Source of the DNA: an uncultured candidate division Zixibacteria bacterium
Lineage (GTDB): Bacteria > Zixibacteria > MSB-5A5 > RBG-16-43-9
Assembly: GCA_963713865.1 (NCBI GenBank)
Contig: OY970208.1
Location: 704,001-768,000, forward strand
Direction: 5' to 3'
Length of the DNA stretch: 64,000 nucleotides
Shown: piece by piece, positions 37,472 through 55,697 of the stretch
Numbering within the stretch: the stretch's first letter is position 1
How the letters are laid out: the number at the start of each line of letters is the position of its first letter
Program-made: the position numbers and the translations under genes
The notes under the pieces: generated by a model
Told to the model about the DNA's origin: nothing
What the model saw: only the letters and a program-made list of their open reading frames with translations
The model's database searches: none

Positions 37472-39928
37472 CTACTTCAATAACACTAATTTCTTTGCCT
37501 CAGAAAAATCTCCAATTTTTATCTGATAAAAATAAATTCCTGAAGCAACCTCTTTTCCTGAATTATCCTTCCCATCCCAGAGAACAGACTTATAACCTGC
37601 AGATAAATTTTCGGAAACTAAAGTCCTCACTTTTCTACCCAAGATATCATAAATCTCTAAGCTGACAAAACCTGAATTCACCAGAGCAAATTCTATCTTG
37701 GTGCTCTGATTAAAAGGATTTGGGTAATTCTGAGACAAGGAAAACTGTTTGGGCAATTGGTTAATTTCCTCTTCATCTTCTACGTTGACAATAATGGTCC
37801 GATTAAAAAGAATGGATACATTGTCGCTCCAATCATTTGCCACTGCCAGGTCTAAATCTTTATCCCCGTCTAAATCCGCACAAAAAATAGAAGAAGGAAT
37901 AGATCCTGCACCATAATCCACCCTGGTCTGAAAAGTCCCATCCCCGTTGTTCTTTAAGATGGAAACATTGTTGCTACCACCATTTGCGACCGCCAGGTCC
38001 AAATCTGCATCCCCATCTAAATCCGCACAAAAAACTGAAGTAGGACTATCTCCTGCACCGTAATCGACCTTGGTCTGAAAAGTCCCATCCCCGTTGTTCT
38101 TTAGGATGGAAACATTGTCGCTACCACCATTTGCGACCGCCAGGTCCAAATCTGCATCCCCATCTAAATCCGCACAAAAAACAGAAGTAGGATAAGTTCC
38201 TGCACCATAATCCACCTTGGTCTGAAAAGTCCCATCCCCGTTGTTCTTTAAGATGGAGACATTGTCGCTACCATAATTTGCCACTGCTAAGTCTAAATCT
38301 GCATTCCCATCTAAATCCGCACAAAAAACAGAAAAAGGACCATCTCCTGCACCATAATCCATCTTAGTCTGAAAAGTCCCATCCCCGTTGTTCTTTAGGA
38401 TGGAAACATTGTCGCTAAGCCAATTTGCCACTGCTAGGTCTAAATCTGTATTCCCATCTAAATCCGCACAAAAAACAGAAGAAGGACTAGATCCTGCACC
38501 ATAATCTACCTTAGCCTGAAAAGTCCCATCCCCGTTGTTCTTTAAGACGGAAACATTGTCGCTACCACTATTTGCCACTGCTAAATCTAAATCTGTATCC
38601 CCATCTAAATCCGCACAAAAAACAGAAGTAGGATAAGCTCCTGCACCATAATCCATCTTAGTCTGAAAGGTCCCATCCCCGTTATTCTTTAAGATGGATA
38701 CATTGTCGCTCCAGCCATTTGCCACTGCTAGGTCTAAATCTGTATCCCCGTCTAAATCCGCACAAAAAACAGACCAAGGAACATTTCCTGCACCATATTC
38801 CACATTAGTCTGAAAAGTCCCATCCCCGTTGTTCTTTAGGATGGACACATTGTTGCTACCACCATTTGCGACCGCCAGGTCTAAATCTGCATCCCCATCT
38901 AAATCCGCACAAAAAACTGAAGTAGGACTATCTCCTCCACCGTAATCGACCTTGGTCTGAAAAGTCCCATCCCCGTTGTTCTTTAAGATGGAAACATTGT
39001 CGCCGTCCTGATTTGCCACTGCTAAGTCTAAATCTGTATCCCCGTCTAAATCCGCACAAAAAACAGAACGAGGACTATCTCCTGCACCATAATCCACCTT
39101 AGTCTGAAAAGTCCCATCCCCGTTGTTCTTTAAGATGGAAACATTGTTGCTACCACTATTTGCCACTGCTAAGTCTAAATCTGTATCTCCATCTAAATCC
39201 GCACAAAAAACAGAAATAGGATACAATCCTGCACCATAGTTGACCGCACTCTGAAAAGTCCCATCCCCGTTGTTCTTTAAGATGGAAACATTGTTGCTTC
39301 CATAATTTACCACTGCCAAGTCTAAATCTGTATCCCCATCTAAATCCGCACAAAAAATAGAAAAAGGTAATTGTCCTGCACCATAATCTACTTTAACCTG
39401 AAAAGTCCCATCCCCGTTGTTCTTTAAGATGGAAACATTGTCGCCGTCCTGATTTGCCACTGCCAGGTCTAAATCTGTATCCCCATCTAAATCCGCACAA
39501 AAAATAGAAGCAGGATAAACTCCTGCACCATAGTTGACCGCACTCTGAAAAGTCCCGTCCCCGTTGTTCTTTAAGATGGAGATATTGTTGCTTCCATAAT
39601 TTGCCACTGCTAAATCTAAATCAGCATCCCCATCTAAATCCGCACAAAAAACAGAATAAGGATTATATCCTGCAACATAATCCACCTTAGCCTGAAAAGT
39701 CCCATCACCATTGTTCTTTAAGATGGAAACATTGTCGCTACCCCCATTTGCCACAGCTAAGTCCAGATCGCCATCCCCATCTAAATCCGCACAAAAAACA
39801 GAACGAGGATCCAATCCTGCGTCATAGTCTATCCTTGTATCAAAAAGCGGTTCAAAAGCTTGTGCGAAATGTGGGAAAGTAAATAAGAATAAAAAAAGGG
39901 CTGTGAAAAACTTGCCTTTTGAAGACAT
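37472..39928 (-). CDS. Secreted FG-GAP repeat protein (14 x 49 aa) with C-terminal FlgD-Ig/T9SS-like domain
   Basis: Signal peptide from ATG 39928 (RBS AAGGAGG); 14 DLDGxxDLDLAV repeats; C-terminal LSQNYPNPFN...WDGKD...SGIYFY. Confidence 0.92.
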   Translation of the reverse strand: MSSKGKFFTALFLFLFTFPHFAQAFEPLFDTRIDYDAGLDPRSVFCADLDGDGDLDLAVANGGSDNVSILKNNGDGTFQAKVDYVAGYNPYSVFCADLDGDADLDLAVANYGSNNISILKNNGDGTFQSAVNYGAGVYPASIFCADLDGDTDLDLAVANQDGDNVSILKNNGDGTFQVKVDYGAGQLPFSIFCADLDGDTDLDLAVVNYGSNNVSILKNNGDGTFQSAVNYGAGLYPISVFCADLDGDTDLDLAVANSGSNNVSILKNNGDGTFQTKVDYGAGDSPRSVFCADLDGDTDLDLAVANQDGDNVSILKNNGDGTFQTKVDYGGGDSPTSVFCADLDGDADLDLAVANGGSNNVSILKNNGDGTFQTNVEYGAGNVPWSVFCADLDGDTDLDLAVANGWSDNVSILKNNGDGTFQTKMDYGAGAYPTSVFCADLDGDTDLDLAVANSGSDNVSVLKNNGDGTFQAKVDYGAGSSPSSVFCADLDGNTDLDLAVANWLSDNVSILKNNGDGTFQTKMDYGAGDGPFSVFCADLDGNADLDLAVANYGSDNVSILKNNGDGTFQTKVDYGAGTYPTSVFCADLDGDADLDLAVANGGSDNVSILKNNGDGTFQTKVDYGAGDSPTSVFCADLDGDADLDLAVANGGSNNVSILKNNGDGTFQTRVDYGAGSIPSSIFCADLDGDKDLDLAVANDWSDNVSILFNRTIIVNVEDEEEINQLPKQFSLSQNYPNPFNQSTKIEFALVNSGFVSLEIYDILGRKVRTLVSENLSAGYKSVLWDGKDNSGKEVASGIYFYQIKIGDFSEAKKLVLLK
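37805..39835 (-). repeat. Intragenic tandem repeat, 14 x 147 bp
   Basis: Near-identical blocks such as TAAATCCGCACAAAAAA and GAAAAGTCCCATCCCCGTTGTTCTTTAAGATGG recur every 147 bp. Confidence 0.95.
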
Positions 39929-40204
39929 CTCTGCCTCCTTTCTGGGATACATGTGTGTAACAATATATTCATAACTCAAAAATGAAAAAAGTCAATATAA
40001 ATATTCTAAAAAATATGGAGTGCATCATCCGTAGGATGCTTTAAAATCACCTCTCCCCTCTACGAGCCGTAAAGCTATAATCGGTTTGTGAGAGAGGGCT
40101 TCGGTGGGAGCTCAGCCGAACAGTTATGGTGAGGGGGAATAGAAATAGTATCACCCTCCCCCTACCCCCTCCCATTAAGGGAGGGGTAATAAGCATTAAC
40201 ACGG

Positions 40205-40278
40205 TCAATGCACTCCATAAAAGACGTCCGGGATAAACCCGGACGCTACATTCTGTAGCCCCACCTTGCCCACAAGGT
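40205..40278 (+). repeat. About 75-bp direct repeat (second copy 43026-43101) flanking the second FG-GAP gene
   Basis: TCAATGCACTCCA.AAAAGACGTCCGGGATAAACC.GGACGCTACATTCT...CCCCACCTTGCCCACAAGGT in both copies. Confidence 0.85.
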
Positions 40279-40306
40279 AGGATTCGACATCCGTCATGAT
40301 TTTTTA

Positions 40307-42724
40307 TCATTTACAGAGCGGAGGTCCAGATTTAAAAAGGTAATTGATAAGATAGACTATATCCGAAAGAGAGGTCTTGCCATCACAATTGGTATTTCCA
40401 GCCTGGCTCGGAACAGGAGCAGGGCCGAATTTGAAAAGATAATTTATCAGATATACCACATCCGCAAGACTTGCCGAGCCATCACCATTTACATCCCCTG
40501 CGATGTAAGCGGGGATGTTACTTAGGTTAAGCAAAATGGAAACGTTATCGCTATTAAAATTTGCCACTGCTAAATCCAGGTCCAGATCGCCGTCCAGGTC
40601 CGCACTGAAAACAGATTGAGGATCATCTCCTACAGGGTAGTTAGTTTTAGACTGAAAAGTCGCATTCCCGTTGTTTTTTAAAACGGAGATATTGTCTTCA
40701 CCAATATTCGTTACTGCTAAGTCTAAATCTGAATCTCCATCTAAATTCGCACAAAAAACAGAAGTGGGGCCATCTCCTGCCAAATAATCGACTTTAGCTT
40801 GAAATGTCCCATCTCCGTTATTCTTTAAGATGGAAATACTATCGCTGCCAAAATTTGCCACAGCCAAGTCTAAATCTTTATCCCCGTCTAAATCTGCACA
40901 AAAAACAGAAGCTGGATAATCTCCTGCACCGTAATCAATTTTAGTCTCGAACGTCCCATCCCCATTATTTTTTAATATAGAAACATTGTCGTTTAGATAA
41001 TTTGCCACAGCTAAATCATAATCCAAATCACCATCTAAATCTGCACCAAAAACAGACTGGGGACCATCTCCTGCTGCATAGTCAACTTTAGGTTGAAATG
41101 TTCCATCACCGTTATTCTTTAAAATGGAAACGTTGTCAGTAGCAAAATTTGCCACGGCTAAATCTAAATCCAGGTCCCCATCTAAATCTGCACAAAAAAC
41201 AGAAGCGGGGTAATCCCCTGCACCATAGTTAACTTTAGTCTGAAATGTTCCATCTCCGTTATTTTTTAAGATGGAAACGTTATTGCTTAAATAATTTGCT
41301 ACTGCAATGTCCAAATCTGTATCCCCGTCTAAGTCTGCACAGGAAATGGAAACAGGATAATTCCCGGTTCCATAGTTGACTGCAGTTTGAAAAGTCCCGT
41401 CCCCGTTGTTCTTAAGGATGGAGATATTATTGCTGTAAAAATTAGCCACAGCTAAGTCCAGATCTTTGTCCCCATCCAAGTCGGCACTAAAAACAGAAAT
41501 CGGACCATCTCCTGCTGTATAGTTTACCGGCAGGGTAAAGTAAGCGAAGTTAGCCTTATAAAGTGCCAGAGCATAATCAGAATTTGCCTTAAGCAGGTTC
41601 TCGCTTTGCCCGGCTACTACCCCAAAAACCACTCTGATAGAATCACCAACCAGCAAATCAAAAGGACCGGTCCCCTGGCAGAATCTTTTGTCCTGAGGGG
41701 AAGTATCATGGTCGAAAGGTCCACCCGGACGGGGTGATCCGGAAGTGGTCAGCCCTGCCATCAGATTGTATCTTTCCACGTCATTGGCTGGATCAGTATC
41801 TATAGTGAACAAAGTCAAAGAGGTCAAACCCAAAGGACTACCGGATGTATCTTTTGGGCTTTCCAAAAATCTGAAACCCATCATTCCCGGTACACCGCTG
41901 ATGTCCTGGTCATATAGAAGATTATAATTATAAACCCAGCAAAAGTCTCGAGTGGAATCAAACCCGATCATATCATCCGTTGCATTCCCCAAATCCGGGT
42001 CACAGGTGATTCCGAGGTAAACCGAGTCCAGATTCTGGTTTCCTTTATTGAAAATATCCCAGATCATAAATATGATGTCTTTGTCATATTTGGAATTAAA
42101 AGCATAAGTAGTCTGTTTGACCAGGATATTTAACTGATCTCCGGGAATAGCAAAGGGATCATGATAATTAATATCTGCATCGTTATAAAAACACCAGCCG
42201 TCCTCAGCTGAAACGAATTTCGGATTACCCTGAGTATCCTTGACTGGCCAGTTCAGACTATCCTGATGAGACCAGGTTGTAACCTCAGTGGAAAGCAGAA
42301 TCGGATAAGTTGGAGGTGGTCCTGAAATCCCATGGTCAGCTGAATCCGGCTGAACGATAATCCCGGGTCCCCACTCGGAGTAACCATCATTCGGATTATA
42401 TCCAACTGATACCACTTTTTTTAAGCCTCCGCCATCTGCTGGAATCTGCGCCCCAATCCAGATACCTGCTCCGAAGATATACAAATTTCCGGTTCCTTGT
42501 AGCCATTCAGTTCCAGCCCTGCCAGTATAAGGGTTCTGACCAAAAATAGCATCATTTTGAATCGGCATTTTGATATGGTTAACCGTCAGATACTTGGCAT
42601 CAGTTGGGATATTCAAGGGTTTAGCTTTCTTAGCCAAATTACTAGCCTCAATAACTGCTGGTATAGAAAAGGAGAAAAATAAAAAAAGAAAAATGATAGT
42701 AAAGATCTTAAATTTTGGAGACAT
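40307..42724 (-). CDS. Secreted protein: N-terminal domain + 7 FG-GAP repeats + C-terminal dockerin
   Basis: Signal peptide; 7 DLDGD-type repeats; duplicated dockerin motif [19 protein letters not shown] / [19 protein letters not shown]. Confidence 0.9.
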
Positions 42725-46788: not shown

Positions 46789-47901
46789 GTGATGAGAAGA
46801 TATAAAATTCTTTTCTTAAACTCTATCCGAGAGAATGTTCTGGGGTGGGGGGAAAATCTGATTTACAACTACTCAGTTCATCTGACCAAAAGGGGGCATA
46901 AAATATATATCGCTGGCAGAAAAAACAGTGAATTCCTAAGCCATTTCTCTCCTGAAAAAATCAATTTAATCCCCATGAAAATCAAAGGAGACTTTGATCC
47001 GGTAAATATCTTTTTTTTAGTCCAATTAATGTCTAAAGAAAAAATAGATTTCCTCTGGGTGAATTTCAACAAAGATTTAAGGCTTGGCGGAATCGCCTCC
47101 AAACTAATCCGGGGACCTAAAATAATCTGGGGGATGGGGGTATTGCTTCCGGAAACTTCTTTAATCCACAGGCTCACGGGAAAATTTTTACCGGATATGA
47201 TTGTAGTTCCCAGCCAGAACTTAAAAGACCAGCTTGGAAGATTTCCCTGGCTGAAACCGGATAAAATCAAAGTTATTCACAACGGTATAGACCTTTCCTC
47301 TTTTGAATTTGATATAAAGAAACAAAGGGAGAAGCTTTTTCAACGTCACAACCTTGATCCCAAACTTACCCTGATAGGAGTCTCTGCCAGATTAGTCCAG
47401 GCAAAAGGTCACCGCTATCTTCTCCAGGCTCTGCCTGAGATAATTAAAGTCCACCCGGATATCAAACTATTTATTGCAGGCGACGGCTCGGAAAAGGAAC
47501 ATCTGATAGAACTGTCTTGTAAATTAAATTTAGATGACTATGTCATATTTGCTGGTTATATAAAAGAGATATTTGAGACTATGGCTGGATTTGACCTACT
47601 GGTTTTGCCCTCGATCATCGAGCCTTTTGGACTGGTTTTAGCTGAAGGTATGGCGCTGAAAAAACCTATAGTCGCTACTCGTGTAGATGGTATTCCTGAA
47701 GTAGTTCAGGATCAGAAAACAGGAATTTTAGTTCCTCCTGAAGACCCTCACTCCTTAGCGCTGGCTATCATCTCTTTACTCAAGGATAAAAATTTAGCTT
47801 TTAGTCTTGGAGAGGAAGGAAGAAAAAGGGTAGAAAAGCTTTTTACTATCGAGAAAATGATAGGCAAAATCGAAGCGCTTTTAGGTGAAATGTCCCGATA
47901 A
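46789..47901 (+). CDS. Glycosyltransferase family 4
   Basis: IHNGID, RL...KG, EPFGLVLAE (EX7E), TGILVPP. Confidence 0.92.
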   Translation: MMRRYKILFLNSIRENVLGWGENLIYNYSVHLTKRGHKIYIAGRKNSEFLSHFSPEKINLIPMKIKGDFDPVNIFFLVQLMSKEKIDFLWVNFNKDLRLGGIASKLIRGPKIIWGMGVLLPETSLIHRLTGKFLPDMIVVPSQNLKDQLGRFPWLKPDKIKVIHNGIDLSSFEFDIKKQREKLFQRHNLDPKLTLIGVSARLVQAKGHRYLLQALPEIIKVHPDIKLFIAGDGSEKEHLIELSCKLNLDDYVIFAGYIKEIFETMAGFDLLVLPSIIEPFGLVLAEGMALKKPIVATRVDGIPEVVQDQKTGILVPPEDPHSLALAIISLLKDKNLAFSLGEEGRKRVEKLFTIEKMIGKIEALLGEMSR

Positions 47902-47939
47902 AAAAGGCTCTATCCACCTCAGTCAGACAGAGCCTTTTT
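47900..47939. terminator. Bidirectional intrinsic terminator
   Basis: AAAAAAGGCTCT...AGAGCCTTTTT between convergent genes. Confidence 0.75.
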
Positions 47940-47960
47940 ACTTGAATTCAGATCTTCTTT

Positions 47961-48698
47961 TTATTTTTTAGGAGTGGTAGCTGGTAAAGTGTTAAATATT
48001 AATGGTATCGAAATCCGGGTCTTCTCTTTCCCCTCCAATTCTAAAGTCAAAGAGCTCTTAAGCCCTTCCTTGGGTAAATCTTTCACCGGTTTTACCTTTA
48101 ACTCAACCGACTTCCCCGGTTTAAGCTTCTTACCTAACTTAACTTTGAAATACTCCTCGGGATAATCGATTAAAGAAACCTTGTACTCCTCTACATCCGA
48201 GTTTTTCAAAGAAAGCTTTTTCTTCTGGGGTTTCCCCTGAATTACAGTGAAATCCAGCGAGGAAGAGGTTAATTGAGCCTTGAAAGTTGAATCCGGCACT
48301 GGAACAACCTGACCATTTAATTTTATATTCTGCACTTGAGAACTGGTATCTTTATAGGAGACATTAGCATATTTGGCAATCTTACCCGAAGCTTTGGTAG
48401 AAGTATAACTTACTATAAGCTCTGTGCTATCACCGATAGCAAGCTCCGTCTTTTTTAAAGGAGCCTTGGTGCACCCTCAGCCAACGCTAACGTTCATACC
48501 CCGCAGAGTATCAGTGCCCACATTCTTTAACCAGAAGCTGTGGCTTACCACAGAATTCTGAGGAATACGACCCCAATCCCAGTTCATCTCTGAAATCTCC
48601 AATTTGGGGGTTCCGGCTTCTAAATTCGTGAAAGCCAGACTTGAAAAGAGAATCGACAATAGAATCGGGAACAAAAACCTGTTCTTTTTCATTTTCAC
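47961..48698 (-). CDS. DUF1573-like exported protein with in-frame UGA (candidate selenoprotein, UGC motif), 245 aa with readthrough
   Basis: ORFs 48477-48698 and 47961-48335 are in one frame separated only by TGA 48479-48477: ...GMNVSVG-UGA-GCTKAPLKKTELAIGDSTELIVSY...; signal peptide present. Confidence 0.82.
48424..48476 (-). promoter_or_regulatory. Candidate SECIS/recoding element
   Basis: Immediately 3' of UGA; stems GGCTCC/GGAGCT and GCTATC/GATAGC; 49/53 identical to 49275-49327. Confidence 0.6.
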
Positions 48699-48817
48699 CT
48701 CCTCCGTTCAGTTAAAAATCTTTATCTATATTTACGAAAAATTCGATTAAAATCTTTAGTTAAATCTGTTTGGTTTTAGATGCTTGTCTTCCCTAGTTTC
48801 CCTTAATCGGGAACGAA

Positions 48818-49531
48818 CTATTTTCCAGTAGGTTTCTCCTTCTTGACTGGAATGGTAATCCTGAATTCCTTTCCTCCTTTAACTTGTAAAGTAATCGACT
48901 TCTTAAGTGTGTCAGGTGGAAGTTTCTTGAGCGGTTTGACTTTGAGCTCTATGACCTTGCCGGGTTTAAGAATATCCCGTTTTAGTTTCACCTCGAAAAG
49001 CTCTTTGGGATAGTCTATTATCTTAAGTTTATATTCTTCTTTACCAGAATTATTGAACTCGACTTTCCTTTCCTTTGTAGCTCCTCCCTTCTCCTCTATG
49101 AACTCTATGGTATAAGGAGAATATCTCAGCAAAAGTAAAGTGTCGGGCTTGGACTTCACATCTGCGGTTATCTCCAATCTATTATACCCGGAGGTAGTAT
49201 CATTAGAGCTCACCTCCACATATTTAGTTTCCTTGGTAGTAGCAGCCCTATTAGTGTAACTAATCTCCAATTCAGTGCTATCGCCGATAGCCAGCTCCGT
49301 CTTTTTCAATGGAGCCTTGGTGCACCCTCAAGGTGTTTTTACGCTGATCCCTTTAAGAATATCAGTCCCGACATTCTTAATCCAGAAGATATGCGTAACT
49401 GTGGAATTTTGTGGTACCCTTCCAAAATCCCAGATCCGCTCGGAAAATTCTATCTTTGGTGTTCCAGCCTGAGAAAAAGAGCAGGATATAAAAACCAGAG
49501 TTATGGCTAAAAATAAACCTTTTAATCTCAC
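48818..49531 (-). CDS. DUF1573-like exported protein with in-frame UGA (candidate selenoprotein, UGC motif), 237 aa with readthrough
   Basis: ORFs 49328-49531 and 48818-49309 are in one frame separated by TGA 49330-49328: ...GISVKTP-UGA-GCTKAPLKKTELAIGDSTELEISY...; signal peptide; RBS GGAGGT before GTG. Confidence 0.82.
49275..49327 (-). promoter_or_regulatory. Candidate SECIS/recoding element
   Basis: Same two-hairpin sequence directly 3' of the UGA. Confidence 0.6.
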
Positions 49532-49556
49532 CCTACCTCCTAAAGTCTACATTAGA

Positions 49557-49584
49557 ATTATAATTGAAAGAATCATTTTGTCAA
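49557..49584 (-). promoter_or_regulatory. Sigma-70 promoter for the DUF1573-like genes
   Basis: TTGACA-16 nt-TATAAT on the - strand. Confidence 0.7.
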
Positions 49585-49690
49585 CCATTTTCTATGTATA
49601 TTTTCGCAGTTACCTGATTTATCAGGCATCTTTATTTCTCGACAACTTGAGTAAATACTTTTACTTATACTAATCGTTTCTCATTTTACC

Positions 49691-49876
49691 TTAATGATTA
49701 ATCCAGAATATATAAAATCCTGCGAAAATTATCAGTAATCCGCTCACCTTTTTGGCAATATTCGAGAAATTTGTTATCCCCTTAGAGTGGGCAAAACTCT
49801 CCACAAAACCAGTTGATACACCGGCTAAAACTATTGACGCATAATGTCCTATGGCGTGGACAAAAAGAAGCGAAAA
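49691..49876 (-). pseudogene. Orphan, diverged 3' fragment of ccdA
   Basis: Translates [60 protein letters not shown]; 42/60 aa identical to the end of CDS 50885-51574. Confidence 0.9.
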
Positions 49877-49929
49877 CCTGAAAAAACACTTGACAAATCG
49901 TCAGGAGATAGACTTATTTATGAGGAGAA

Positions 49930-50137
49930 AAAATCCGTGAGAAAAGCTTTCTTGACTGAGCGGGCCACTTGTCATACGCACCGATATTCTTTCGCCACTC
50001 ATTTGCTGGAAAGTGGTTATGACATTCGAACGGTACAGGAGCTTCTCGGCCACAACGGTGTGAGAACCACAATGATCTATACCCATGTGCTGAACCGTGG
50101 CTGCCGAGGGGTAAAGAGCCCGGTGGACAGCCTATGA
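49930..50137 (+). pseudogene. intI: Integron integrase C-terminal fragment
   Basis: [51 protein letters not shown] matches the IntI C-terminus; the N-terminal part is absent. Confidence 0.88.
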
Positions 50138-50149
50138 GGAGGGAGTGGT

Positions 50150-50307
50150 TGCGTATTATGCGGAAGCCATATAAGACGCAGAAGCATAACAAGATCCCTC
50201 GTAATCCATTGAAAATAGATAGATTACGCGGAAGTCTCATTGGAGTATTCTCTGGAAGCAAAACCCGAAAACGGGTTTATACGGAAACCATATAACCATC
50301 GTTGGGC
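50150..50307 (+). mobile_element. attI-like region downstream of intI
   Basis: Direct repeats TTATGCGGAAGCCATATAA (50156) and TTATACGGAAACCATATAA (50277), partial copy at 50224; ends at GTTGGGC 50301-50307. Confidence 0.6.
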
Positions 50308-50377
50308 GTCATAATCGTGTGCCCCGACGTCTTAGTCGTAGCAATCTTCACCAGAGCACCAGTAAGGAGCATCACAG

Positions 50378-50815
50378 ATGTCCATCAGTAGCAATGCCAA
50401 AGAGATACTCACTCAATTTACCCGCGAGGTATGGAGCGAAGGCAATATCGAAGCCTCAGATAAATATATCGCACCAAAATACACAATTCATCACGATCCT
50501 GGCGATCCATGGGAAGGTCGGGAACTTGATCTCGCAGGATACAAGGAGCGCGTCAAAACATTGCGTGCGGCGTTTCCCGATCAGTTCTTCGATATACAGG
50601 GACTTTTTGCCGACGGTGACGCTGTTGTGATGACTTGGCTCTGGTCAGCCACGCACAAGGGGGACATTCCTGGATTTCCCGCCACAGGCAAACAAATCAA
50701 GATGTTTGGAGCTACGGTTTACTATTTCGATGGTAGCCGACTTACTGGGCATTGGCAGATCACTGATCGTCTTGGCGTGTATCAGCAGTTACAGCGGGCG
50801 TCTACTGGTGTCTGA
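50378..50815 (+). CDS. SnoaL-like ester cyclase / NTF2-fold protein (integron gene cassette)
   Basis: AFPD...GDAV...ATHKG...PATGK motifs; higher GC than its surroundings; bounded by GTTGGGC and GCCCAAC. Confidence 0.9.
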   Translation: MSISSNAKEILTQFTREVWSEGNIEASDKYIAPKYTIHHDPGDPWEGRELDLAGYKERVKTLRAAFPDQFFDIQGLFADGDAVVMTWLWSATHKGDIPGFPATGKQIKMFGATVYYFDGSRLTGHWQITDRLGVYQQLQRASTGV

Positions 50816-50823
50816 CGAATGCC

Positions 50824-50890
50824 GCCCAACCAATCATTCCACCGGACCTGCGCGAAAGACCGCGCAGACCGGTGAATTCAAATGTTATAA
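50824..50890 (+). mobile_element. Integron attC site
   Basis: GCCCAAC...GTTATAA; arms ATTCCACCGG/CCGGTGAAT with an unpaired base; central GCGCG hairpin. Confidence 0.88.
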
Positions 50891-51574
50891 GTTAATGAAC
50901 AAAATGTACAAACCCGCTAAAAAAATCAGAACTCCACTGATTTTCTTAGTGAGGCTGGAGAAGTTACTTACCCCTTTAGACTTGGCGTAGCTTTCCACAA
51001 ATCCCGTTGATACCCCAGCTAAAACTATCAAAGCACAATGTCCTATGGCATATACAAAAAGAAGTGAAATTCCATAGACTATCCTGGCTTTTGTAGCGAC
51101 GAAAGCTAAGATAACTGCTAAAACCGGTGTGGCACAGGGAGAAGAGACTACCCCGAAAAGAAGTCCTAAGAGAAACGCACCCAAGACCCCTTTATGTTTA
51201 GTTTTCAATTCCACAGTTTTGGGAAACGGAATTTTAATCAGGCCTAAAAGATATAAGCCCATAATCAAAGCCACCCCCGCGGCTAAATAAAACCATAACT
51301 TCCCTACATCTCCGAAAAGCTTTCCCAAAAGGGAAGCCATAGCACCTAAAATGGTAAAAGTGATAGATAACCCTAAGGCGAAAACCAAAGAATAAAGCAG
51401 GGCTTTCTTTTTATCCCCCTGAGAATAACCTCCCACAAATCCAATCACCAGAGGGATAATTGCCAGAACACAAGGGCTGGAAGCTGATAAGATACCACCT
51501 AAAAAGATTAAGATATAAGCTAAGCCCGGAGTGTTATTTATTACACTGGATATGTTCCCCAAAATGGATTCCAC
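50885..51574 (-). CDS. ccdA: CcdA/DsbD-beta family membrane electron transporter
   Basis: SSPCVL and SSPCATP cysteine motifs; about six TM segments. Confidence 0.9.
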   Translation of the reverse strand: MESILGNISSVINNTPGLAYILIFLGGILSASSPCVLAIIPLVIGFVGGYSQGDKKKALLYSLVFALGLSITFTILGAMASLLGKLFGDVGKLWFYLAAGVALIMGLYLLGLIKIPFPKTVELKTKHKGVLGAFLLGLLFGVVSSPCATPVLAVILAFVATKARIVYGISLLFVYAIGHCALIVLAGVSTGFVESYAKSKGVSNFSSLTKKISGVLIFLAGLYILFINL

Positions 51575-52011
51575 TATTTGACTCCGATCTCCAAAAACTT
51601 TTGTGTGATGGAAGTTTTATCCATAAACCCCTCATGTCTGTAAACTTCTTTTCCAGAAACATCGAAAAATATCTGTGTAGGGATTAACCTTATTTTATAA
51701 AACCTGGCTGGCTCCGGGTCATATCTGATATCTATAATTTTGATTATTGCTCTCCCTTTATACTCATCTTTTAATTCTTCCAATATAGGCAGCATCATCT
51801 TACAGGCTTTACAGGTGCCCCTGCCCAAATCGATTAAGATTGGTAAATTTTTGGCTATTACGCCTGAACTATCATTAGTCGTAGAAATTTTCTCAGAAGA
51901 AGAAGTCTCCCCCTCCTTAAAAGATGCTTTATCTCTTCCTTGAAAGATAATCCAGCCTGCGATTATAAAAACGACTGCCAAGCTAATCACCAATTTCAGT
52001 AATTTATTCAT
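51574..52011 (-). CDS. Membrane-anchored thioredoxin-family protein
   Basis: N-terminal TM; CKAC active site; IPTQ cis-Pro loop. Confidence 0.88.
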   Translation of the reverse strand: MNKLLKLVISLAVVFIIAGWIIFQGRDKASFKEGETSSSEKISTTNDSSGVIAKNLPILIDLGRGTCKACKMMLPILEELKDEYKGRAIIKIIDIRYDPEPARFYKIRLIPTQIFFDVSGKEVYRHEGFMDKTSITQKFLEIGVK

Positions 52012-52034: not shown

Positions 52035-52274
52035 TTACTCTTCTTTAATCAACCATTCTTTAATTTCTGCCAATCCTGGCACCCTGCCAGAACACAGGAC
52101 CTTCCCGTTTATAACTAAAGCAGGTGTCATTAAGATTCCGTACTGCATAATCGATTTAATATCTTTGATTTTAGACACCTCTGCTTCTTTACCTATCTCT
52201 TTTAAAGTCCTCTGCACGATCTCGTAAATCTTCTCACATTTTACACACCCCGGACCTAAGACCTCGATTTTCAT
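52035..52274 (-). CDS. Small redox-active disulfide protein (thioredoxin fold)
   Basis: IEVLGPGCVKC...TPALVING. Confidence 0.9.
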   Translation of the reverse strand: MKIEVLGPGCVKCEKIYEIVQRTLKEIGKEAEVSKIKDIKSIMQYGILMTPALVINGKVLCSGRVPGLAEIKEWLIKEE

Positions 52275-52304: not shown

Positions 52305-52841
52305 TTATTTTGTAGTTTTTTTGACCTCTTCATCTTTCTTAAGGGCAATAAAATCATTAAGCTCTTTTTGGAAATTAGGAAGAAATTTTTCTTCTTCTTC
52401 ACAAAATTCCCAGACCGATTCGATCTCTTTAAATTCCTCTTTCCCTTTGAATAACTTCTTAAAGCCTAAAGCAGACCAGAAGATTTTATATTTTTTGGCG
52501 GTTGAAGAATCTTCATCTATATTGCATTCCTTGAAGATTATTCTTCGATCTTTGTATGGTTTTGAATAAAATTTCTCTAATCCCTTTTTGGAAAAATTGC
52601 CCACATTTATACAACAGGAACACCGAGCAGTGGGATGAAAATGAATAACCAGTAAACTGTCAAATCCCAGAATTAAAGTAGAATCTGCAACTTCTTTTCT
52701 TGTAGCATCGATCTTCTTTTGAGGAAAATTTGCCGATTTCTCTTTTTGTCCATAACTAACCGACCCTATTAACAAAAAAAGCAGAACTACAATTGAATGT
52801 AATTTGAAATTTCCTCTAAACATTTTAAAATAACGCTCCAA
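52305..52841 (-). CDS. ArsF-like exported thioredoxin-fold protein
   Basis: Signal-like N-terminus; HFHPTARCSCC motif; position inside the ars cluster. Confidence 0.65.
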   Translation of the reverse strand: MERYFKMFRGNFKLHSIVVLLFLLIGSVSYGQKEKSANFPQKKIDATRKEVADSTLILGFDSLLVIHFHPTARCSCCINVGNFSKKGLEKFYSKPYKDRRIIFKECNIDEDSSTAKKYKIFWSALGFKKLFKGKEEFKEIESVWEFCEEEEKFLPNFQKELNDFIALKKDEEVKKTTK

Positions 52842-53859
52842 AGACCATCCCGGTTATAGTTGCCATTATCATTACTAAGATAATGTAAGCCCCTGTTTTC
52901 CTCCACCCCATAATCCCGATTAGCACGATCATACTGGGAAGGCTCAAAGCCGGTCCGGCTAAAAGCAATGCCAGAGCGGGACCCCTGCCCATTCCTAAAT
53001 CCAGCAAAGCTTTTATGATGGGCACTTCGGTTAGAGTTGAAAAATACATAAAGGCACCGAAGATAGAAGCTATGAAATTCGCTCTTAATCCATTTCCGCC
53101 AACCAATTGTTCTACTATCTGTTGAGGAAGTAATATCTTCATCATCCCGGCAACGAAAACCCCGATTAGTAATATGGGAAAAATCTTTTTCCCTAAATCC
53201 CAAGTTTGAAAAAGCCAGTCTTTAAGCTCATCTTTTTTGAACCAGCGATAGAGGATTAAAAGTAAAGCGAGCAAAAGGATTCCAGTTACCAGCCATTTTT
53301 TTGATGCACCGAATACTAAAATTCCTACCAAGACAGCAAAATATAGAATCGTTATTCCCTCGTGTTTAGGTTTCTCGCTTTGAGGCAGAATCAATTCAGA
53401 AGCATTTTTTTCTTTTTCCAGTTCCTCTTTTCTCCAGATAAAAGCCATAATCAACCCGATTATGATTGAAAAAGATATAGCTCCCACTGCTCTGGCAAGT
53501 CCCAGATCAAATCCCAAAAGCCTGGCAGTATAGACAATGGCTAAAACATTAATAGCTGGACCGGAATATAGAAAAGCAATGGCCGGACCCAAGCCCGCAC
53601 CTCTTTTATGTATTCCAGCAAAAAGAGGTAAGATAGTGCAGGAACAGACCGCTAAGATTGCACCGGAAACTGAAGCGACACTATAGGCTAAAACCTTATT
53701 CGCCTGAGCACCGAAATATTTCATCACCGAAGCCTGGGAGACAAAGACTGCAATCGCGCCAGCGATGAAAAATGCCGGAACCAGACAGGTTAGAACGTGG
53801 GCGGAAAGATATTCCAAAAGTGCATTCCAACCGCCTGAAAGTATCTGGGTGAAATTCAT
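52825..53859 (-). CDS. ArsP/DUF318 family permease
   Basis: HVLTCLVPAF, AVCSCTILP, GPAIN, FSTLTEVP. Confidence 0.88.
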   Translation of the reverse strand: MNFTQILSGGWNALLEYLSAHVLTCLVPAFFIAGAIAVFVSQASVMKYFGAQANKVLAYSVASVSGAILAVCSCTILPLFAGIHKRGAGLGPAIAFLYSGPAINVLAIVYTARLLGFDLGLARAVGAISFSIIIGLIMAFIWRKEELEKEKNASELILPQSEKPKHEGITILYFAVLVGILVFGASKKWLVTGILLLALLLILYRWFKKDELKDWLFQTWDLGKKIFPILLIGVFVAGMMKILLPQQIVEQLVGGNGLRANFIASIFGAFMYFSTLTEVPIIKALLDLGMGRGPALALLLAGPALSLPSMIVLIGIMGWRKTGAYIILVMIMATITGMVFGALF

Positions 53860-53873
53860 AGATGTCTTTTTTT

Positions 53874-54260
53874 CTACTTTCTCAAAAACTCTTTTATTTT
53901 CTTCTCTATCTTGTCCCTTACTTCTTTAAACTTTTCTTTTGGCTTTTCTTTAGGGTCTTCGATCTCCCATTCAATCCTCTGTTTAGCCGGCACAAAAGGA
54001 CAAACATCACCACAACCCATAGTGACCATATAGTCAAAGTTAGTATAGGGCAAGTCCTTAAATCCTTTGGATTTTTGTTCAGAAATATCAATCCCTTTTT
54101 CTTTCATCACCTCAATCGCCAACTCATTGACTTTTCCGGAAGGATTTGAGCCGGCACTGAAGACCTCTATTTTATCCCTGCCATAGAATTTAGCAAACCC
54201 CTCTGCCATCTGGCTCCTGCAGGAGTTCTCAATGCAGACAAACAAAATCCTCGGCTTCAT
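53874..54260 (-). CDS. arsC: Arsenate reductase (LMW-PTPase fold, thioredoxin-coupled)
   Basis: CIENSCRSQMAE P-loop, MGCGDVCP, EDP. Confidence 0.88.
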   Translation of the reverse strand: MKPRILFVCIENSCRSQMAEGFAKFYGRDKIEVFSAGSNPSGKVNELAIEVMKEKGIDISEQKSKGFKDLPYTNFDYMVTMGCGDVCPFVPAKQRIEWEIEDPKEKPKEKFKEVRDKIEKKIKEFLRK

Positions 54261-54269
54261 CTGTTACCT

Positions 54270-55319
<1,050 letters not shown>

Positions 55320-55349: not shown

Positions 55350-55697
55350 TTATTTACATTTGTAGGCATATGCCTGAGAGAGTTTTTTCTTCAGTCTTTC
55401 TTCATCCTGTTTAACTGATTCACTATCAGGAAGAGCATTTTTAATAGTCTGAACTACGGACTTCTCAAAATCGTTCTGGGGCTTGAATAGAGAGTAAAAA
55501 ATCCATAAACCCTCTCTTCGGTCTTCTACTAAACCGGTTGAGCGAAGGATGGTTAGATGTCTGGAGACTTTGGACTGGGATAAATCTAAAGCAGCTTCCA
55601 GTTCGCACACGCACAGCTCCCTTTTCAAAAGAAGCTTCAAAATCCTCAGGCGGGTCTCGTCCCCTAAGGCTTTTAACATCTTAATTTGTATTTGCAT
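55350..55697 (-). CDS. arsR: ArsR/SmtB family repressor
   Basis: KALGDETRLRI, ELCVCEL, SRHL. Confidence 0.92.
   Translation of the reverse strand: MQIQIKMLKALGDETRLRILKLLLKRELCVCELEAALDLSQSKVSRHLTILRSTGLVEDRREGLWIFYSLFKPQNDFEKSVVQTIKNALPDSESVKQDEERLKKKLSQAYAYKCK

Follow-up and report, generated by a model that had tools for sequence, protein, structure and literature searches.

The stretch of DNA analysed here (the window) comprises 64,000 nucleotides (nt), positions 704,001 to 768,000 of contig OY970208.1, from an uncultured candidate division Zixibacteria bacterium (assembly GCA_963713865.1). On its minus strand lie two tandem genes for proteins of the DUF1573 family, here called gene A and gene B, each with one in-frame TGA codon. 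As judged from the sequence, both are almost certainly real selenoprotein genes in which this UGA is decoded as selenocysteine (Sec, U). Upstream of them on the same strand is a string of arsenic-resistance (ars) and thiol-redox genes. The features of the locus are listed in Table 1.

Two tandem genes with UGA at the homologous codon

Standard translation of the minus strand gives four open reading frames (ORFs) at this locus, at 49328-49531 (67 amino acids (aa)), 48818-49309 (163 aa), 48477-48698 (73 aa) and 47961-48335 (124 aa). When TGA is read as U, the four fuse into two tandem frames of 237 aa (A) and 245 aa (B), with no further stops or frameshifts in either. The original prediction had proposed that the four short ORFs are two genes with one TGA each at the homologous codon, in the contexts VKTP-UGA-GCT and VSVG-UGA-GCT, that the products have signal peptides, and that promoter, ribosome-binding site and terminator are intact; all of these features were confirmed, as were the two lengths. 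For gene B, however, the ATG at 48692, two codons inside the GTG and preceded by GGAGGAGG, is the more likely start and would give a protein of 243 aa.

Proteins A and B are 48% identical to each other, and both cover the whole length of the Pfam DUF1573 profile (PF07610), scoring 79.6 and 65.3 bits, respectively, against a gathering cut-off of 26.1. Export of both by way of an N-terminal signal peptide is predicted from the sequences and from a modelled N-terminal helix at residues 2-17. The hexamers of the promoter 5' of gene A match at 12 of 12 positions, part of this promoter (TTGACAAAATG) is also found 5' of the orthologue in the same genus, and GGAGG lies ahead of the GTG start of gene A. 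The terminator-like hairpin 3' of gene B has a folding energy of -17.4 kcal/mol (z -3.5), and was passed over by a simple terminator scan because its loop exceeds 8 nt.

Table 1. Features of the DUF1573 locus and of the genes 5' of it. Positions are those of the window; Sec, selenocysteine; H1 and H2, first and second hairpin.
Feature	Position	Strand	Details
Gene A, predicted DUF1573 selenoprotein	48818-49531	-	237 aa; GTG start, TAG stop; signal peptide and two immunoglobulin-like (Ig-like) domains
Predicted Sec codon (UGA) of gene A	49328-49330	-	U68; motif P-U-G-C-T; context VKTP-U-GCT
Hairpins of gene A, candidate bacterial selenocysteine insertion sequence (SECIS)	49277-49316	-	H1 49316-49293 (GGCUCC-N12-GGAGCU, -9.1 kcal/mol); H2 49291-49277 (GCUAUC-GGC-GAUAGC, -6.6 kcal/mol)
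Sigma-70-like promoter 5' of gene A	49557-49584	-	TTGACA-16-TATAAT
Gene B, predicted DUF1573 selenoprotein	47961-48698	-	245 aa from GTG, 243 aa from the likelier ATG; TAA stop
Predicted Sec codon (UGA) of gene B	48477-48479	-	U74; motif G-U-G-C-T; context VSVG-U-GCT
Hairpins of gene B	48426-48465	-	H1 48465-48442 (-8.1 kcal/mol); H2 48440-48426 (-6.6 kcal/mol)
Terminator-like hairpin and T run 3' of gene B	47900-47934	-	Abuts the stop of a convergent glycosyltransferase gene
Inserted stretch between CcdA and gene A	49844-50815	+	Integrase fragment 49844-50137; SnoaL-like gene 50378-50815
CcdA/DsbD-type transmembrane thiol-electron carrier	50885-51574	-	PF02683
Membrane-anchored thioredoxin	51574-52011	-	PF00085; C-K-A-C motif
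Thioredoxin_3 protein	52035-52274	-	79 aa; 'redox-active disulfide protein 2' type; C-V-K-C motif
Cysteine-rich protein	52305-52841	-	178 aa; apparent signal peptide; C-S-C-C motif; no Pfam match
ArsP_1-type permease	52825-53859	-	PF03773
Arsenate reductase ArsC	53874-54260	-	PF01451; low-molecular-weight-phosphatase type
ACR3-type arsenite efflux carrier	54270-55319	-	PF01758
ArsR repressor	55350-55697	-	ELCVCE motif

Decoding of the UGA codon

The original prediction interpreted the two TGA codons as programmed recoding to Sec, and proposed that this be examined by searching the genome for selA, selB, selC and selD, by tabulating TGA against TGY (TGC or TGT) at this codon across homologues, and by estimating the ratio of nonsynonymous to synonymous substitution rates (dN/dS) 3' of the TGA. 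All three analyses came out in its favour. The host genome is a single contig of 2.72 Mb and is 94% complete; selC (62.3 bits), selD, selA and selB are all present in one cluster outside the window (G000:C1:1640358-1645027), and all score above their cut-offs. The selD gene is itself interrupted by one in-frame TGA, and the selenophosphate synthetase of the host is probably a selenoprotein too.

Homologous frames were collected from relatives, 34 of them from the best-scoring loci, 20 chosen for one TGA and 20 chosen for no stop. The codon could be aligned in all 74, and was TGA in 54, TGC in 12 and TGT in 8, that is TGY in 20; nothing else, including TAA and TAG, was found at this position, a pattern far beyond chance. 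The 54 TGA rows all have their TGA at this same codon and come from genomes spread over the order and the class. Of the two residues that follow, C70 is invariant and G69 nearly so among the aligned homologues. The triad is U-G-C in 52 of the 54 Sec rows and U-H-C in the other two, both orthologues of gene A (L027 and L028), and its middle residue is thus not strictly fixed. Comparison with orthologues gave dN/dS values of 0.13-0.23 for the region 3' of the TGA, where synonymous divergence (dS) was not saturated, indicating purifying selection. Over the 18 codons that follow the UGA, dS was 0.08-0.40, as against 0.4 to saturated elsewhere.

Each UGA is followed by two hairpins (Table 1). In the form common to the Sec genes, H1 is GCUCC-N12-GGAGC and begins 11-12 nt 3' of the UGA, and H2 is GCU(A/G)UC-GGY-GA(U/C)AGC and begins 36 nt 3' of it. 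The mean folding energy of the 54 nt 3' of the codon is -16.4 kcal/mol for the 54 Sec genes, compared with -10.0 kcal/mol for the 20 cysteine (Cys) genes. Across 50 Sec sequences the two-helix structure pairs in 90.5% of cells, which none of 500 shuffles matched, with slid controls at 28-57%; in the Cys genes, which mostly encode Pro there, only 46.3% of cells in the same columns pair. Pair 43-51 alternates between G-C (35) and A-U (12), because a synonymous Asp codon (GAC or GAU) follows the Val/Ile codon. As set out in the available part of the published model for bacterial SECIS elements (bSECIS), the loop lies 16-37 nt from the UGA and a G is found among the first two positions of the apical loop (PMC13188914). 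H1 of gene A fits this model, with its energy of -9.1 kcal/mol, the apical loop GAAAAA and a spacing of 20 nt.

An Rfam scan of positions 47500-50000 returned no SECIS family, the sole match being a small RNA at chance level (E 9.5). In Sec subfamilies that are more distant, hairpins occupy similar positions but differ greatly in sequence. One such Sec subgroup (L063, L069, L070 and L071) has the motif U-G-C-T-x-x-R-x-x-G-I-V-I-P and a single different hairpin (GGAAUAGUUAUUCC) approximately 23 nt after the UGA. Metagenome contigs of other organisms accumulate and break off at window positions 48372-48489 and 49257-49315, over the approximately 60 nt that follow each TGA, because the hairpin region is strongly conserved in nucleotides among relatives. 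Four other TGA-bridged frames in the window have no Cys-type context and were taken as noise.

The Sec machinery, the restriction of the codon to TGA or TGY, the purifying selection and the Sec-specific hairpins therefore agree in favouring programmed recoding. Open and conserved frames such as these would also fit any other sense reading of the UGA, whether as Trp, Cys or Gly by ordinary read-through or under a reassigned code, with no Sec involved. This explanation is very improbable. TGA terminates 5 of the 38 long ORFs of the window, and the code is therefore not reassigned; moreover, the Sec operon of the genome is complete and has a selD that is likewise TGA-interrupted, the codon exchanges with Cys codons only, and the RNA hairpins go together with TGA. 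That the genes are split or decaying, so that only N- and C-terminal pieces or nothing at all is produced, is the picture that four ORFs from standard gene calling might give, but it is hardly credible when 54 of 54 TGA rows share the codon across order and class, when the downstream sequence is under purifying selection and free of other stops and frameshifts, and when the full-length structure model is confident over the junction.

Family, fold and ancestry of the pair

The original prediction did not recognise a characterised selenoprotein family in these genes and left their novelty unverified. The family has already been catalogued and so is not new: A and B are new members of the uncharacterised OS_HP2/DUF1573 'UxC' family. 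OS_HP2 was introduced in 2007 in a paper on Olavius (Zhang and Gladyshev, 2007, PMC1976440). The 2008 table for the Global Ocean Sampling data lists it under pfam07610 with the motif UxC, two Sec sequences and 354 Cys homologues (PMC2398784), and 'DUF1573, UGC' is carried in review tables of 2022 and 2026 (PMC9312934, PMC13188914). In the literature that we searched, DUF1573 is mentioned in only four papers.

In the accessible parts of these sources the family has the same characteristics as A and B, namely the PF07610 domain, Sec as the first residue of U-x-C, Cys homologues with C-G-C, stem-loops after the UGA and a function that is uncharacterised. A and B differ in that they form a divergent branch, scoring 56.9 and 47.8 bits, respectively, with the NCBIfam model NF041425 ('OS_HP2 family (seleno)protein'), for which the curated cut-off is 100, and in that they are a short, two-domain tandem pair with signal peptides. 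They also carry the two-hairpin element and adjoin the ars/thioredoxin (Trx)/CcdA string, a context that does not appear in those parts of the published descriptions. Among 201 sampled genomes of the phylum, 196 have a domain of the NF041425 type at E <=1e-10 and none reaches the cut-off; the top score in this sample, 95.8 bits, belongs to frames of approximately 400 aa that contain a single TGA and share the U-G-C-T motif.

AlphaFold2, run with the 74-row alignment, gave a model with a mean predicted local distance difference test score (pLDDT) of 93.8, in which an N-terminal helix, corresponding to the signal peptide, is followed by two Ig-like beta-sandwich domains. U68-G69-C70 is placed in a loop after strand 63-65 of the first of these domains. 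The original prediction of a non-thioredoxin fold is thus upheld by Pfam, by the model and by Foldseek, which matched the model to ciliary Ig domains of the ASH/HYDIN type, the SPD-2 domain of CEP192 and PDB entry 2qsv (E 8e-12 to 9e-9). The likeness to Ig-like ASH/HYDIN/PapD-like domains and to 2qsv lies in this match of folds and in weak Pfam matches; TM scores are only 0.3-0.4, for a comparison of two mobile domains. 2qsv is a Porphyromonas gingivalis protein whose function is uncharacterised, and the eukaryotic ASH/HYDIN proteins are ciliary with an unrelated role. A sequence search of the PDB with protein A gave no match at E up to 1.

In a quick tree the orthologues of gene A form one clade and those of gene B its sister (12 rows, support 99), both within an all-Sec group of 34 order-level rows; the duplication that gave the tandem pair therefore took place at the level of the family, in a gene already bearing Sec. 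The original prediction took the same TGA in two diverged paralogues as an argument for recoding. On this tree the two are not independent, both having inherited their TGA from one Sec-bearing ancestor. The starred branches of the tree require at least four Sec/Cys changes, and parsimony needs nine. The host genome also has a third paralogue (G000:C1:1487566-1488204), which has C-A-C in place of U-G-C, falls in a separate Cys clade and has no ars or thiol-redox neighbours.

We consider it very probable that A and B are, as a whole, exported selenoproteins of this catalogued family with an Ig-like fold, whose UGA codons would be decoded by the SelA, SelB, SelC and SelD of the genome itself under the guidance of the two conserved hairpins. 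Some observations weigh against this. Both proteins fall below the NCBIfam cut-off for OS_HP2. Neither hairpin agrees fully, in both genes, with the bSECIS model in its available form: H1 of gene B has no G at the first two positions of its apical loop, and H2, which has a G-G loop, lies 42 nt from the UGA, outside the range of the model, with an energy of only -6.6 kcal/mol.

Gene neighbourhood and a possible role in arsenic handling

The same-strand order of genes 5' of gene A is ArsR-ACR3-ArsC-ArsP-CysRich-Trx3-Trx-CcdA (Table 1). The DNA that separates CcdA from gene A resembles the remnant of an insertion; a relative in the same genus (L093) does not have the integrase/SnoaL stretch, and its Trx-CcdA pair lies approximately 250 nt from the gene A orthologue. 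The 178-aa protein with the C-S-C-C motif is encoded again in the ars/Trx clusters of relatives from across the phylum, some of which have two copies of it. Elsewhere in the window (37472-42724, minus strand), two genes encode large proteins with FG-GAP repeats. One of these has a dockerin domain; the other has a sorting domain for type IX secretion, which suggests that the organism has a type IX secretion system.

Neighbourhoods of the Sec genes were compared across relatives. Of 13 order-level Sec loci, 10 have ars homologues (ACR3, ArsC or ArsP) within approximately 8 kb and 8 have a Trx-CcdA pair, which abuts the gene A orthologue in four relatives. A TlpA-like redoxin lies directly 3' in 5 of the 13, and arsR lies directly 5' of the Sec gene in 3 loci outside those four relatives, with the Sec gene of one locus placed between arsR and ACR3. 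In the Sec subfamily of approximately 400 aa, which is found in many families of the phylum, ars homologues are near 13 of 20 loci, and a frequent string consists of ArsR, a Trx-like exported protein, a MacB-type permease, an ATP-binding cassette (ABC) ATPase and the DUF1573-Sec gene. This string is found next to ACR3/ArsC genes at L154:4433-8884, L150, L152, L159-L161 and L163-L165, where the Trx-like protein has a Cys-rich C-terminal tail and the DUF1573 Sec protein of approximately 400 aa is membrane-anchored. By contrast, neither ars nor thiol-redox genes were found near any of 20 Cys-paralogue loci from the order.

These neighbourhoods point towards arsenic. We regard as tentative, and at best evenly balanced, the idea that a periplasmic U-G-C selenol/thiol centre binds or reduces arsenic species, or repairs envelope thiols that arsenic has damaged. 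The neighbouring CcdA and membrane thioredoxin would then pass electrons across the membrane and keep the U-G-C centre reduced, and the ArsR and MacB-type ABC exporter found beside the DUF1573 Sec protein in relatives would fit a hand-over of the bound species for export. The As(III) sites of ArsR and ArsD are made of close cysteines, C-V-C in the case of ArsR. A and B resemble them, from their sequences, in having two chalcogen ligands one residue apart, and the ArsR of the window shows CVC; they are unlike them in fold, in compartment, being exported, and in the use of selenium. His47 is nearly invariant and might, at a guess, be a third ligand.

Published ars operons that include CcdA have the same components as those found 5' of the pair: ArsR, ACR3, ArsC, an ArsP_1 permease, Thioredoxin_3, thioredoxin and CcdA. 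The available part of the paper that describes them names no periplasmic acceptor, whereas here an exported Sec/Cys protein follows CcdA. The same paper doubts that electrons flow across the membrane, ArsC being cytoplasmic. No paper in the literature that we searched assigns a DUF1573 selenoprotein to an ars operon, although related work on OS_HP2 neighbourhoods may exist.

A role in arsenic handling has several points against it. The link is drawn from gene neighbourhood. In the window a separate promoter serves the pair, which is parted from CcdA by 1.35 kb of inserted DNA; the relative in the same genus has a terminator-like hairpin 3' of CcdA. An operator common to the promoters of gene A and arsR was sought and not found, only the promoter hexamers being shared. 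Since the Cys paralogues are a separate clade, the contrast between Sec and Cys loci at the level of the order amounts to approximately one evolutionary event. Finally, none of seven class-level loci with tandem arrays has ars genes, and MacB/ABC and GWxTD genes are found there instead.

These arrays would also suit an explanation in which A and B are real selenoproteins and the association with arsenic is incidental. The U-G-C site would then act generally on thiols and disulfides of the envelope, as an oxidoreductase or in the manner of an isomerase, or would serve another soft metal (Cu, Hg, Sb or Te), within a metal/redox gene island. CXC peptides mimic disulfide isomerase. Thiol-redox genes are the commonest close neighbour of the Sec genes and are present with no ars homologue at Sec loci L103 and L105; besides the five loci with a TlpA-like redoxin directly 3', two have a Trx-like protein in that position. 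We consider this explanation possible but doubtful, since the gene directly 5' of the Sec gene in three order-level relatives encodes an ArsR with the CVC motif, and the proximity of ACR3, ArsC or ArsP recurs in two different Sec subfamilies.

With respect to a role in arsenic handling, the neighbourhood is a modestly new clue to function. Around Sec-type members of the family, genes for ArsR, ACR3, ArsC, ArsP, exported thioredoxin-fold proteins and MacB-type exporters turn up repeatedly, which is not the case for the Cys paralogues that these genomes also encode. The window offers a clean case: the two genes are in tandem, the Sec system of the host is complete, the two-hairpin element is specific to Sec genes, and the pair comes after an ars-Trx-CcdA string. 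Since gene callers split A and B into four ORFs and the NF041425 scores are below the cut-off, such genes may well be mis-annotated in many genomes.

OS_HP2/DUF1573 has been listed since 2007 without a function, and its neighbourhood now gives a testable hypothesis on periplasmic arsenic handling. An exported Sec/Cys protein beside CcdA would supply the missing client of that carrier, and might explain the presence of CcdA in some ars operons. In its boldest form, which we think rather unlikely, the hypothesis is that the CcdA-thioredoxin pair of many ars operons has its missing periplasmic clients in the DUF1573 U-G-C selenoproteins, which would perform a selenium-based capture or reduction of arsenic in the envelope, be recharged by transmembrane electron flow and, in relatives, feed a MacB-type exporter under ArsR control. 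If this were true, selenium would have an active part in how bacteria defend themselves against arsenic outside the cytoplasm.

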